From IMG/VR virus record IMGVR_UViG_2913112809_000004, positions 1 through 47,442 of that record: 47,442 nucleotides of DNA. The stretch is one strand, 5' to 3'. This document shows positions 24,001-30,000 of the stretch, in pieces. The position numbers were made by a program. Every line of letters starts with the position of its first letter. Within the stretch, counting starts at the first letter, position 1. This DNA comes from a virus (lineage: Duplodnaviria; Heunggongvirae; Uroviricota; Caudoviricetes).

Positions 24001-27000
24001 CGGCAAATTTCCGCGTCGCGAAACTGGTAGCGATATTCACCAGCATCACCGTTTTACCCCAGCGACGACCACAGCATACCGCGTGGAAGCGTTCCTCTAT
24101 TGCCGCCGTCCATGCAGCTATTTGCCCCTCATGAGGTTTTGGGAGGTAGATTTCAATCGACATTATTCACTCCCGGCATCGGCAGAGAGTTGTGGATAAT
24201 TATTTCGTTATTCTCACCACCCACGCCTTTTTTGAGGTTTTCAATCTCAGTGCGCAGCTTTTCATTGCGAAGCCTCAGTCCTTCAAGCTCCAGATCATTG
24301 CGACTGTCAGTTGCACCACCAGCAGAACTTCCTTTCGTCGCCATTATCAGCTTGATAAGTTCGCGCCGGGCGGCAGCCTTATCCTCCAGCAGGATCTCAA
24401 CACCAAATTTCCCGAGCTTTGCCCCTGCATATAATTGCCTCGCATCCCCATCAAGCAGAGTGGTATCAGCCATATAAAGCTGTCCTGTTCCCTCACCGCA
24501 GCACTTCGGGCAGTCCGGATTGGGTATGGCGTTATCAACAAAGCCAAGGCCTCCATATTCCGGTTCGAGTTTGCCATCTCTGGAAGCCTGCGCCGCTGCC
24601 TTATCGAATTCTGCTATATCGCGCCACTGGTAGTGATGATTCTCGCCCCAGCAATAACGGCAGTTAACACGGCGAAATTGTGCCAACTGATTGGGGTCGG
24701 CCTGGACAATGGCCATCAACTGACTCACCAGTAAATCCAGGTCTGCGGTATAGCGTTTCTGGTACTGATTGCGGAACCATGAGATAGCCCGATAAACCTT
24801 AGGATTTCTTAGGAGCTGGCTGGCAGTTACGTAGGCCGCATTCCCCTCTGACTCGTATCCTGCCAGGCGATATGCCTCAACGAGTTTTCTCCCCTGTGCA
24901 ACCAGCATCGCAAATTTCGTCTGCTGCTCTGAGATGCCGAATTCATCGGGATTGAATAAAATTTCCTGATCATTTCCTGCAACGGGAGAAACAACCACTC
25001 TGGATTTTTCCTTCCCCGTTTTGCCGGTTCGCTTTTGCGCAGTTTTCTTTTGCGCATCTTTTTGCGCAGTTTTGCGCACTTCTGCCTGCGCATTTTTCGG
25101 AGGTTTTTTGATGTAACGACGGGCTGTTGCGTAATTCAGTCCCCTTGCTTCACACCATGCCACCGGAGATATACCGGAGCGGGTGTATTCAGCAATATAC
25201 TCCTGCTGCAACGCCCCCCAGTCCGGTCTGCTCATCAGTTAGTCCTGATTTTTATCCACCCTGAGTAGTTCGCGCAGAGCAAAGGCATCCCCTTTTCTGG
25301 CAAGCTTAAACAATGCCGCCCGTAACTCGGCTTCACCTTTCGCTCTGCCCTTACGGATGGACGCATAAAAATTTGTCATTGCTTCCCGATTTTCTTTCAG
25401 TCGATTCAGATCAACATCCAGAACGTCAGCGATTTGTTGTGCAGTCATCCGGCACGCTGCCAGAGACTCGACTTTCGAATACGGAATCATTTGTCACCCC
25501 CATTGATATGCAGGGTGTCTTCTTCCTGTATTTTTCGTGAAGAATTTTTACTGCAGCGTTGTTCCAGGTGACCTGGTGGTGAATGCGTTTATGGCTGGCG
25601 CCCATCAGTGAGATTTTTACGCACGACGGTGCATACATGACGGAGTAAAAACTTTTAACGTAGGTTCCGGAATCCAGATACAGCTCGGTCATTCCGCCAC
25701 TGTTTTTCTGCGTCTGTTTCTGCCCTAACTGGACAGCACCGATCGTCATAAACAATTCTCCACGGCGACCGAGATTCGTGTACGTATTCACATCCTCGTT
25801 AATGCGTCCCATGAATGAGAACGGTCGGTCAACCGAACAGATAAAGCTGTTCATTGCCTTACGTTTCACCCATGAAGCATGAGCGCCATTGTCACCAAGA
25901 AAATCCCCGCCCTGCGACATAGCGATGGAAAGCGCGGGTATTGATTCGTAATACGCCAGCATTTCAGAAAGGATCGCATCCAGTTTCCTTATCGGAAAAT
26001 AGGCCTGGTCATAGTTGCGATCCACCCGAAACTGGAACTCGTGATAATCATCATCGAGCTGAATGAAGTATTTACACCCGACCATTTTTGCCAGGTCGAA
26101 ACAGGCATTACGGGCGTAAAAAATTGAACGGCGGTCACCGAGATTATCGGCTTCGTCAAAACGACTGGCGATATCGGCTTTGGAAAACACCAGCACCTGT
26201 TCACCAAATTCAGCTACGTACTGATGCCAGGTCTTGTCTTCATCATCGACAATGATAAAAATTTTCCCGGTATAGCCAGCACGACGCAACGTCCGGTAAG
26301 TCAGAACTTTGTCCGGTCGCCCGTGAGTCAGAATAAAGGCGCAAAAATCATCACGCACATTCATCCTCCTCCCCGCCATGCATGATCTCCACCATACGCT
26401 GCGTCATCCGGACAAATCCATTTTCAATAGCCTGCTGATAATCAATGATCACCAGCGCCGACTCCTCGAAAAGACACTGAATTTCAGCGGGGGCGTGAGC
26501 GTAATAGTCCGCAATTCTGCTGAAATTAAACACCGTGTGACGTTCTGCCGCACACAGGAGGAATTTCTCAATATCAGGATCAAGGGGCGCCGAACGTATC
26601 CGGTTGATCAGCTCCTGAGTTTTCGTATCGTCGTACAGTTCACTGATATCCGGTTTACCGCCCGATGGCTCATAAACAGGCGTATCAATTTTCGTCGTAT
26701 ACGGCTCATCCTCATTTCCTGTACCTGGCAAAACATCCGTCAACAGCTCATCAATTTCTGTCGGGCTGAAGCCTGTCAGGGAGACATCAAAATCAGCATT
26801 GATTAACTCCGACAGCTCCATCCGTAACAGTTCTTCATCCCAGCCAGCGTTCAGTGGCAAGCGATTATCTGCCAGGCGATACGCCTTTTTTTGGTCATCC
26901 GTCAGACCAGACAAAACAATGACCGGAACGGAATCCATTTTGAGCACTTCAGCCGCCATAACGCGACCGTGACCCGCAATAATTTCGCCCTTTTCATCAA

Positions 27001-30000
27001 TCAGCACCGGATTAGTCCAGCCGAATTGCTTAATGCTTTCTACCAGTTGTGCCACCTGCTCAGGGCTGTGTGTCCTGGCATTGTGTGCATACGGAGACAG
27101 TTCTTGTAACGGGCGATAGACGATCTTCAATTTCTCGCTCATACAGCCTCGCTTGATGAATAAAAAAGCTCGCCAACAGCCAGTGCGCTGGGTGCGCGGC
27201 GGGTGCTGTTGGTGAACCATGGCATTATAACAGCCCCTCACTAAAGAGCTGTTATAATGCTGATGTGTGGTTACAACATTAATATTTTCAATGCTATATA
27301 TCCGCTTATATTCGTCCCCTTCAATAATAACATTCACACAATCAGCACTTCATAAGCTCATAGAAATAAAAATGCCCCACTCTGGGGCAATAAAACAAAA
27401 AACAACTTAATTATTCCGCATCTAATTCTATAGCCCATATATGATTCGGACTATATGCTTCGCTTGCGCATAAATTCACTTTCATATCTGAAAGTATAGC
27501 AGCCATTGCAATTTTCCTCATTTCATCAGCGACATAATTATCCGGATAGTTTTGCGCCCCAGGAATAATCCAAACACCGCCAGTTGAACTGACAACATAT
27601 ATACCTTTCCTATTAACATTTGCGTCAGCAAAATATTGAGTCAATTTGACTCCCTCTACAATTCTGGCTGTGGTTCCTCCACAGTTAGTTCTAAACTCCT
27701 GGCTAACACCTGCAAATGTTTGGATAGATACCAAACTTATCATAAAAACAAAAATTTTAATCAATGCCTTAAAGTTCATCTTTATCTCCATTCTTTACCA
27801 GAAAATCATCAATACTTTGCAAAGTCAACAAAGTGGATTTGCGTTTTATGAACTTCTTAAATTTTAATAAATCAGCTTGCGATAGTTCATTAGTGATAAA
27901 ATCACAGGTTAAAAAACTATTAGTTTTATTATTTTGATGGCATTGATCTGGCGCAAACTCTATCCAAGGGTACTCTCTCCAGGCTGGGAATTCATCAGGG
28001 AATCCCGCAAGATGATACCCATCTTCATTCGGTGCAACAGATAATCCACGAAATAAATCTCTTCGATAATTTCTGTTTCTGTGCATCCCCCCCTCTATCG
28101 CACCAAAAGTTACTCTATACCATCCAATTATTTGTGATAATGGAACACCACCTAATGCTGCATACTCATTTTCACTTGGGTATGGGCTGTATGTACCGAG
28201 TATGCCGTTCACATCAAATAAATTAGGCGCTGGTGCAATGACATAAATATAATACTCGTTAAAGCTCCCAAGCATATTTTGCCCGATCAAATGAGCCTGT
28301 CTTAATGTCGTTGTTGTAGATACATAACCATCATTATATCTGGTATTCCCTGTTACAGTTCCTCGGGCGTGATCATATAAATTAATATTGATTGGCGTAC
28401 CACGTTCATACGCTTCATCTTGTCCTCGGGGTATTAACCCACCAGAACGTCTCACTTCATCTGGTGATCTGGAGTCTGCTCTATAAAAATCATTAGCATA
28501 AGACGTAGAAGATATGAAAACCAAGGTGACAAACCAAAAAACAATTCTATTCATGATACTTATTGTGCGCTCTGAACTATGTACAATGACATTAACGCAT
28601 CTGCAAAACAGATAATTGATGCAAATCAATAAATAGAATTAATCAAAAACATAAGACATATATAATTTATCCTGAGATTATAATTTCAGCTATTACGCAA
28701 ATTTTTTATTTAATTTTGTAATTTCCAACTAAAGTATAAATATCAACAATTGATTCCTGATACGCGCTCTTTAATCCAGCCATATACAAACGACTCGTTA
28801 GCCTCCCGTTTCTCTGCCAGCTCCAGGTAACGGTCACCCTGCGTACAGTTCAGTGCGGTCAGCATTACCCGTTCGCCATCCCTGCCACGATTTTTCAGAT
28901 ATGCCCGTAACGCATTAATAGTTCGTGGGCCGATACGTCCGTCTGCATCCATATCCGGATACAGTTTCCCGCGCAGGTTGAAAACGTTCAGCCAGCGTTG
29001 AAACATTTTTGACGCCACGGTTGGCCCCATGTTGACGCCTGTGTCGCACAGCTCTGCGGCAATATCCGGGGACAAATTTGCCACCTGGTCAAAACGTGGG
29101 CCGTACCAGTAATCCGCCTCGAGTATTTCCAGCGCCTGCCCGCGCGTCAGGTCACGCATATCGCCCTGATATCCGTGCGCCCGGGCGACTTTTTCAGTAA
29201 TGCCCCATTTGGTCGGACCACCTTTATCATCCGGATGGTTGACGTAACCGCCCTCTTTTCCCAGAACTTCGTCAAAAATTTCATCTTTCGACTTCATTTC
29301 AGTACCTTCGTAATGCAAGGATTTTTGAAACATTCCCACGTGCACGTATCACCAGCACGCAGAACAGCAGATTAAAAAACACCACCAGCCAGTTCGCCGC
29401 TAACAGACGACCACACAGATAGCTGAGTGGCGCAAGGGCATAAAGCAGCATCAGCAGCCAAGCCAGCCATGACATCAGCGGTTTATGTCTGGAATCATGA
29501 CGACGATAAAAAAAAAAGCGTCAACACGATAACCGTGCATAACGCTACATTCAGCAATCCAGAAAGGTTATCAGGCATTGCCGCCTCCCCCACCCCGCAG
29601 GCGGGAGAACAGGCCGGACACCAGTGATGCGATATCCTGCTGGTGGATGAACGACAGAATCTTCACCGACACCACTGACACCAGCACTGCACACAATGCG
29701 TCGACAGGCGCTCCGTCAAACCCTGTATGCTTTACCAGCCAGGATGCCAGAACCTCTGCACCCAGCACGCCGATAATGAACGACACCAGAAAATGCGCCG
29801 CCACACGCCAGGCTGAAAGCGCCTGCGGTATCGTTGCCACAAATAACGCCCCGGCGAACGCACCAAACACAATCCCGAAATCCGTTCCGGTAAACAGCCC
29901 GAATACCGTCGCCCCGCCGAGCGCCGCAGCCGTGCCGGAACCGGATAAGGGTTCAGACATACTTTTTCTCCTGTAAATAAAAAAGGCCACCAGCGGCCCG

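Follow-up and report, generated by a model that had tools for sequence, protein, structure and literature searches.

A TAGT-family glycosyltransferase and its ParB-like partner form a conserved gene module, possibly acting on DNA, in a Rac-like prophage

Results

The gene pair and its transcription unit

This work concerns two overlapping genes, one encoding a ParB-like protein and the other a TAGT-family glycosyltransferase (GT), in the IMG/VR virus record IMGVR_UViG_2913112809_000004 (Caudoviricetes). The whole record of 47,442 nucleotides (nt), hereafter the window, is a Rac-like lambdoid prophage with genes for an integrase, a 3'-5' exonuclease-domain protein, an O-like replication protein, a Q-like antiterminator, two tRNAs, a holin and an endolysin, then the A and B genes of type II heat-labile enterotoxin (LT-II). 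Both open reading frames (ORFs) were present at the coordinates given in the initial annotation, on the minus strand (Table 1). RefSeq labels them ynaK (ParB/Srx family N-terminal domain-containing protein) and 'GREB1-related protein'. Their overlap amounts to 29 nt, or to 14 nt if the TAGT protein starts at M6 (26364), which is probably its true start since alignments with homologues begin at residue ~4-12 and RefSeq gives a protein of 310 residues. For the ParB-like gene, a longer GTG-started ORF reaching to 27337 was unsupported: homologues align from residues 1-5, i.e. with the ATG at 27142. Downstream of the TAGT gene, and on the same strand, follow an 83-residue ORF, terS and terL. The pair comes first in the late operon, that of packaging, in agreement with the initial description of a pair ahead of the packaging genes. 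The 83-residue ORF resembles part of a small terminase subunit (phrog_309) and was retained only in enterobacterial relatives, with tblastn matches in loci L082-L085 and L120 of our collection.

The LT-II operon (27411-28629, minus strand) lies between the endolysin gene and the ParB-like gene and is closed by a terminator of its own at 27389-27373. It resembles a moron insertion, because similarity to other Rac-like prophages picks up again at about 27260. A terminator-like hairpin with a T-run directly precedes the ribosome-binding site of the ParB-like gene and was kept, with compensatory changes, in Shigella and Escherichia ruysiae relatives. Since both the LT-II terminator and this conserved hairpin precede the ParB-like gene, the pair is probably read from an antiterminated late transcript, on which expression of the module would depend. 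A search for parS-like repeats around the module yielded this hairpin, a perfect 13-nt inverted repeat at 27222-27260 and short repeats at chance level, and no candidate loading site. The 13-nt repeat was exact only in the window and in L002, and imperfect in L001, L003 and L010.

Both genes are under purifying selection and do not represent a chance ORF pattern. In the comparison with E. ruysiae, dN/dS (the ratio of nonsynonymous to synonymous rates) was 0.16 and 0.12 for the two genes; against Serratia fonticola and Pantoea loci, the nonsynonymous proportion pN was 0.14-0.24, with the synonymous proportion pS saturated at 0.72-0.81. For TAGT, the comparison with L085 was left out, its extracted reading frame being wrong (pN 0.70). 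Among complete E. coli genomes, 1568 of 5426 had a match, with a coverage of at least 80% in 865 of them, and the TAGT protein of the window recurs, at 100% identity, on a further IMG/VR contig (UViG_2802429234_000005).

The TAGT glycosyltransferase

The 317-residue protein had been tentatively called a GT-A-fold glycosyltransferase from a DXD-like motif. It matched the Pfam family TAGT (PF20691) with E=7.5e-36 and 124.4 bits, against a cut-off of 27.5, over positions 4-205 of the 205 in the profile, as well as phrog_842 ('beta-glucosyl-HMC-alpha-glucosyltransferase') with E=5e-100. The motif in question, FIQLDDDYHEF, was indeed present, its DDD forming residues 109-111 (26047-26055). In 52 homologues, down to 57% identity, residues R21, D109, D110, D111, Y112 and D196 were invariant, and E195 was at least 90% conserved; an INED motif is at 25792-25803. 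Active-site motifs of the form R...DDD...EDY/F are common to phage GT-A enzymes acting on 5-hydroxymethylcytosine (5hmC) and to trypanosome JGT (bioRxiv 10.1101/2023.12.21.572611). The arrangement R21...D109DD111...E195/D196 reproduces this signature, the third motif of the window protein reading EDV instead of EDY/F. A structure predicted by AlphaFold with the 52-sequence alignment showed a GT-A (single Rossmann-like) fold. With the full-length profile match, the active-site motifs and the predicted fold in agreement, the initial call can be stated firmly: the protein is a TAGT-family GT-A glycosyltransferase with intact catalytic motifs. The protein did not match a family lacking a transferase fold, the outcome named beforehand as speaking against the call.

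The window TAGT belongs to a tight subfamily whose members are 47-58% identical across phyla. One locus (L117, 2722-6137) carried two tandem TAGT paralogues after a single partner gene. Long TAGT-containing proteins with tail-fibre or tail-tip-type domains were also encountered, which we read as putative products of deletions in defective prophages.

The ParB/Srx domain of the partner

The N-terminal part of the 263-residue partner matched Pfam ParB_N (PF02195; E=1.6e-6, 28.5 bits, above the gathering score of 26.3) and phrog_620 (E=3.5e-89), whereas TIGR00180 gave a domain-only match far below its equivalog cut-off. For residues 10-145 the best matches were to phage DNA methyltransferases, in their ParB-type N-terminal domain (PADLOC MTase_II, 7e-38; phrog_498, 2.4e-51). 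The Box II motif GHGR, at residues 57-60 (26963-26974), conforms to the GxxR phosphate-binding motif. In an alignment of 30 partners N21, G57, R60 and N93 were conserved, N93 (the Box III Asn) being invariant, and the Box II Arg, R60, was lost in 3 of the 30 (L091, L098 and L102). Profile, Box II and Box III together assign the domain to the ParB/Srx group, as had been proposed.

The partner is not a partition ParB. A canonical ParB of the ParABS type was considered and rejected: Pfam detected neither a helix-turn-helix (HTH) nor a ParB C-terminal dimerisation domain, and scores did not come near the cut-offs for TIGR00180, Noc and PRTRC. No ParA-type family was found among the 25 commonest of the 55 neighbour families, nor was one annotated near the pair in two related records.

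The C-terminal adaptor domain

In the same alignment, the best-conserved part of the partner was not the ParB domain, which is its variable part, but the C-terminal ~115 residues, for which we use the term adaptor. The adaptor follows the consensus YTxKIxxPxYEP, ~30 residues, FLxxAAxRHxVFNYxKIAEYYAHA..Q.LMExSALVIIDFxKAIENGF; Y148, P155, Y157, L195, R201, F205, A211, Y214, E226, I232, D234 and A238 were invariant in all 30 sequences. In the window, its motif YTTKIDTPVYEP lies at 26666-26701. A search of 26 adaptor sequences at E<=1 gave the domain no meaningful Pfam match, the commonest hit being PF23887 with E of at least 0.017 in 7 of the 26. Sequence-profile searches of PDB with the adaptor alignment and with the TAGT alignment returned chance-level matches only (T4 gp54, designed armadillo repeats).

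The domain is widespread. A profile search collected 4389 proteins at the 90% cluster level, and a single-sequence HMMER search 1193 representative clusters at 50% identity. Among the best 150 of these 1193 representatives the adaptor was always at the C-terminus, and none was a clear adaptor-TAGT fusion of the kind that a Rosetta-stone test looks for.

The top profile matches were stand-alone proteins of 125-135 residues without any ParB domain. The gene following such a stand-alone adaptor was a TAGT gene in 7/7 contexts, one of these TAGT genes being frameshifted. In L123 (module at 1850-4418) the ParB domain and the adaptor are encoded by separate, adjacent genes. Stand-alone adaptors start with MKQxxLFG, and the pattern Qxx[LIMF][FLW] was found within the first dozen residues of 74 of 98, as compared with 3 of 562 background ORFs (0.5%) and none of 119 TAGTs. 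The bacterial beta-clamp-binding consensus is QL[SD]LF or QxxLF, and the peptide of the stand-alone adaptors looks like a clamp-binding motif of this type. In two of the seven contexts, L122 (4925-7243) and L126 (3931-6261), the stand-alone adaptor gene is directly preceded by a phage DNA_pol3_beta gene and followed by TAGT. The window partner carries its ParB domain in place of the QxxLF peptide. As judged from these sequences, the adaptor is attached to either a ParB/Srx domain or a clamp-binding-like peptide.

Conservation of the linkage across phyla

A pattern-based scan of GTDB, with each species represented by one genome, gave 40 loci with TAGT relatives of 47-97% identity, from Enterobacteriaceae (Proteobacteria), Bacteroidota, Firmicutes, Chlorobi, Desulfobacterota, Planctomycetes, Actinobacteria, Saccharibacteria and an archaeal metagenome-assembled genome. 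A full-length ParB-like relative (27-95% identity) lay immediately upstream of TAGT, on the same strand and abutting or overlapping it, in all 40. Together with the seven stand-alone contexts, a ParB-like or stand-alone adaptor gene was linked to TAGT in 47/47 loci, and the pair is an obligate module through this previously unannotated adaptor domain. In most loci with enough flanking sequence, a small ORF and then the large terminase subunit came after the pair. TAGT relatives also occurred in cultured phages, namely Lactobacillus phages phi jlb1, c5 and LL-Ku, Nocardia phage NTR1, Vibrio phages of ~190 kb and Haloarcula virus HHTV-2. The annotated order in phi jlb1 is ParB-like, TAGT, terS, terL, portal; in HHTV-2 both annotations lie under the match.

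Sugar-nucleotide genes were embedded in two loci. In L099 (5569-10771), a Virgibacillus plasmid-prophage, genes for an epimerase/dehydratase and a sugar-1-phosphate nucleotidyltransferase (NTP_transferase) are directly upstream of the module, and in L123 a cytidylyltransferase-like/histidine-phosphatase gene (CTP_transf_like/His_Phos_1) stands between the adaptor and TAGT.

Other features of the window

Four closely spaced copies of the 14-nt unit TTTTGCGCAGTTTT were found inside terS, at 25033-25083, where they encode a Lys/Gln/Ala-rich repeat; they could be a pac-site-like element or a mere coding repeat. The toxin genes place the window among the LT-II prophages, which are known in the literature. 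The arrangement of the two tRNA genes was the same in a related RefSeq prophage (L001). On the opposite strand, in the early region, a three-gene island of low GC content (0.36-0.37; 34802-36958, plus strand) encodes proteins of 365, 142 and 234 residues. These matched PHROGs of unknown function (12777, 11490 and 9664) and had no match in Pfam or PADLOC; the island may be an uncharacterised accessory or defence cassette.

Table 1. Positions of the gene pair, its domains and neighbouring features in the window
Feature	Position	Strand	Basis or note
ParB-like partner, 263 residues ('ynaK' in RefSeq): ParB/Srx NTP-binding (nucleoside triphosphate-binding) domain, linker, C-terminal adaptor domain	26351..27142	-	PF02195, phrog_620
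ParB/Srx N-terminal domain and helical extension, residues 1-140	26723..27142	-	Profile matches and alignment
C-terminal adaptor domain, residues 147-263, TAGT-specific partner domain	26354..26704	-	Alignment conservation; gene linkage
TAGT-family GT-A glycosyltransferase, 317 residues (RefSeq 'GREB1-related protein')	25426..26379	-	PF20691 and phrog_842
Terminator-like hairpin with T-run	27173..27191	-	Compensatory changes in L082/L083
83-residue ORF separating TAGT from terS and overlapping the 3' end of TAGT	25239..25490	-	phrog_309, E=2.5e-22
Small terminase subunit terS, 360 residues, downstream neighbour of the module	24153..25235	-	PF03592 and phrog_51
Large terminase subunit terL, 442 residues	22835..24163	-	PF03237
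Type II heat-labile enterotoxin B subunit	27411..27791	-	PF06453, 2.9e-57
Type II heat-labile enterotoxin A subunit	27769..28629	-	PF01375, 3.7e-119
tRNA-Gly(TCC) and tRNA-Thr(TGT)	31710-31863	-	Downstream of the Q-like antiterminator gene
823-residue early-region protein, long unannotated N-terminal part	43009-45480	+	C-terminal Rv2179c-like 3'-5' exoribonuclease domain, PF16473, 3.4e-66

Discussion

Parts of this picture are already known. Both protein families and the gene pair itself are annotated, and a partnership of ParB proteins with phage DNA-modifying enzymes has been proposed as well as demonstrated. As far as our searches show, three points have apparently not been described: an adaptor domain that is obligate, the two ways in which it is attached, and a widespread, conserved subfamily in which we found no acceptor-making enzyme. 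The TAGT family was reportedly first defined by Iyer et al. in 2013. Of 753 TAGT-carrying phages, 288 were reported to be without alpha- and beta-GT as well, and the function of such solitary TAGTs was called "yet to be defined" (PMC13216743). Elsewhere, solitary TAGTs were viewed as less obviously related to DNA (bioRxiv 10.1101/2023.12.21.572611). A ParB-CTPase survey does not, in the passages searched, mention glycosyltransferases as partners, and its fusion analysis was built on Pfam domains, of which the adaptor has none. The homologous ynaK gene of E. coli K-12 is a truncated N-terminal remnant. In a 2026 screen, overexpression of ynaK was reported to raise the minimal inhibitory concentrations of six antibiotics (PMC12924614), an effect that may be unrelated to the role of the intact protein.

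The closest known enzymes are the beta-glucosyl-HMC-alpha-GT of T2/T6 and the metavirome GT-A enzymes acting on 5hmC, which share with the window TAGT the Pfam family PF20691, the GT-A fold, the R...DDD...ED motifs and their phage origin. The acceptor of these enzymes, however, is 5hmC or glucosyl-5hmC, provided by a hydroxymethylase or by a methyltransferase together with TET, and they have no adaptor protein, whereas in the subfamily studied here an adaptor gene was always upstream and no acceptor-making gene was found. The distance between the two groups was considerable: a tblastn search (E<=1e-5) with the window TAGT against 50,697 phage records matched no Escherichia T-even phage, and its only T4-like matches were Aeromonas phages at 23-25% identity. 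GREB1 and kinetoplastid JGT belong to the same superfamily and share its motifs, which is reflected in the RefSeq name of the window protein. Neither has such an adaptor; JGT needs 5-hydroxymethyluracil (5hmU) made by JBP, and GREB1 is a large cytoplasmic protein that O-GlcNAcylates estrogen receptor alpha (PMC7968844).

For the partner, a close parallel is the pair 5mYOX176/ParB176 (PMC13229309). There, too, a phage DNA-modifying enzyme goes with a ParB-like protein, often near terminase genes, and the partner is likewise composed of a nucleotide-binding domain, a short helical segment, a long (~50-residue) disordered linker and a C-terminal domain, with no recognisable DNA-binding domain. 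The enzyme, however, is an iron- and 2-oxoglutarate-dependent dioxygenase, its clusters are tied to kinases, GATases and amino-acid:DNA transferases, and the likeness seen to the window partner is one of layout. Phage fusions of a ParB domain with a DNA methyltransferase carry the N-terminal domain matched by window residues 10-145. In these fusions the enzyme is joined in cis and transfers a methyl group, whereas in the window it is a separate glycosyltransferase, putatively recruited via the adaptor. A DNA glycosyltransferase coupled to a sliding clamp is known from T4, where alpha-GT goes with gp45 (PMC13216743), a parallel to the QxxLF adaptors and to the beta-clamp genes next to two of them. 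T4 alpha-GT differs in having a GT-B fold, in binding the clamp directly without an adaptor, and in using 5hmC as acceptor.

We propose that the adaptor tethers the TAGT enzyme to a DNA-riding module, and that phage DNA would be glycosylated after replication and before packaging, probably as a protection against restriction; on the sequence comparisons at hand we would give this proposal about an even chance of being right. A two-component glycosyltransferase would be made at the head of the late operon. Its catalytic subunit, going by homology and predicted fold, would take a sugar from a nucleotide-sugar, and the obligate partner would contribute the ~115-residue adaptor, which its strict gene linkage marks as specific to this TAGT subfamily. 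The adaptor would tether the enzyme to a ParB-type clamp in this prophage, or to the replication clamp in other phages, and the sugars added to the replicated DNA before or during packaging would protect it from host nucleases. A characterised TAGT member, the beta-glucosyl-HMC-alpha-GT of T2/T6, acts on DNA (PMC13216743). Two precedents are in line with this proposal: phage ParB-like proteins of the same layout activate thymine dioxygenases specifically on double-stranded DNA (PMC13229309), and T4 alpha-GT binds the gp45 clamp (PMC13216743). The sugar-nucleotide genes of L099 and L123 and the terminase genes that come after the pair in most loci also speak for it. The DNA-modification or anti-restriction role suggested for the pair in the initial annotation is thus the best-supported reading and has gained from the clamp-adaptor evidence, although it stays an inference for which an acceptor-making enzyme has not been found.

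Several observations weigh against this proposal. To our knowledge, every characterised DNA glycosyltransferase needs a hydroxylated base. No TET/JBP (5mYOX) protein, thymidylate-synthase-like hydroxymethylase or other acceptor-maker was found by Pfam, PHROG and PADLOC in the early region of the window. TET/JBP was also missing among the 25 commonest of the 55 families in genes flanking the pair at 27 loci, and from the precomputed Pfam annotation of the seven stand-alone adaptor contexts. For the structural region (1-22800) we judged by the RefSeq names of near-identical regions only, and these were all structural or hypothetical, with no acceptor-maker among them. The clamp-binding reading of the QxxLF peptide rests on motif resemblance. 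Since the Box II Arg is lost in some partners, and many have no ParB domain at all, NTP-dependent clamping cannot be essential to the core function. Finally, a TAGT relative, GREB1, glycosylates a protein (PMC7968844).

Because no enzyme making a 5-hydroxymethyl-pyrimidine was found, the acceptor would have to be something universally available, or the target would not be DNA. The former could mean that the pair is a self-sufficient DNA glycosylation system, which, riding a ParB-type or a beta clamp, would put the sugar directly onto a canonical DNA constituent, e.g. an exocyclic base amine, with no prior hydroxymethylation; we regard this bolder form as rather unlikely and offer it tentatively. 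The latter would be the case if TAGT modified its own partner, or a virion or packaging protein. The acceptor could then be the invariant Tyr, Thr-or-Ser or Tyr of YTxKIxxPxYEP, situated in an acidic, probably disordered linker, in the manner of glycogenin, with the rest of the adaptor docking the enzyme. The adaptor is the sole constant companion of TAGT, and an enzyme-substrate pair would explain why no acceptor-maker is needed; the O-GlcNAcylating activity of GREB1 cited above would also fit. Besides the invariant Y148, P155 and Y157, position 149 was Thr or Ser in all 30 sequences, and in a larger set the motif was present in 227 of 268 family members. The same motif could equally be a docking peptide, however, and protein glycosylation leaves unexplained why the adaptor is joined to a ParB/Srx domain or to a clamp-like peptide beside a beta-clamp gene. 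It would bring no obvious gain for the phage, and the other characterised phage TAGT enzymes act on DNA, so that we consider a protein target possible but improbable.

A hydroxylated base might also come from elsewhere. The pair would then be a remnant or accessory of TET/5mYOX hypermodification, fed with 5hmC or 5hmU by an unlinked phage or host gene or by a divergent dioxygenase that Pfam does not recognise, and idle in E. coli prophages without it. The TAGT family owes its name to linkage with TET/JBP, and in L127 a C5 DNA methylase is encoded two genes upstream of the pair. Metavirome 5mYOX genes co-occur with GTs (31%), ParB (27%) and terminases (19%), and thousands of 5mYOX-like contigs are without a Pfam TET/JBP annotation (PMC13229309). 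Yet no dioxygenase was seen in the window or in the 47 neighbourhoods, 27 of which were covered by the 25 commonest of 55 families, and the ParB-dependent 5mYOX clusters go with kinases, GATases and amino-acid:DNA transferases, not with GTs. An idle gene would decay, whereas the pair persists, TAGT with 47-58% identity across phyla, and selection on both genes is purifying in enterobacterial prophages without such an enzyme; we think this explanation quite unlikely. That the two genes are functionally unrelated, the ParB-like protein being a nuclease or partition factor for the phage genome and the glycosyltransferase a moron for, e.g., cell-surface or O-antigen modification, would suit the position beside terS/terL and the database names 'partition protein' and 'nuclease'. 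It is very hard to reconcile with linkage in all 47 loci, which holds even where the ParB domain is missing, with a partner that has neither ParA nor a recognisable HTH or ParB C-terminal dimerisation domain, and with the sugar-nucleotide genes in the operons of L099 and L123. There is also no membrane partner of the GtrA/GtrC type, and Pfam detected no family of this kind in either protein.

Conclusions

In conclusion, one large and highly conserved TAGT subfamily is never truly solitary: a dedicated adaptor is always present, joined to one of two modules related to DNA clamps. Should the pair turn out to be ordinary or idle, little would be lost, as annotations exist for both families. With DNA as the target, common E. 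coli prophages, among them toxin carriers such as this LT-II phage, may package modified DNA, with effects on restriction, sequencing and transduction. The findings also carry the recent idea of ParB-like activators of phage DNA-modifying enzymes over from dioxygenases to glycosyltransferases. Direct glycosylation of a canonical DNA constituent would amount to a chemically new class of DNA modification, and up to ~29% of complete E. coli genomes would have it in their prophages (16% with near-full-length matches), as would phages of many bacterial phyla and of haloarchaea.

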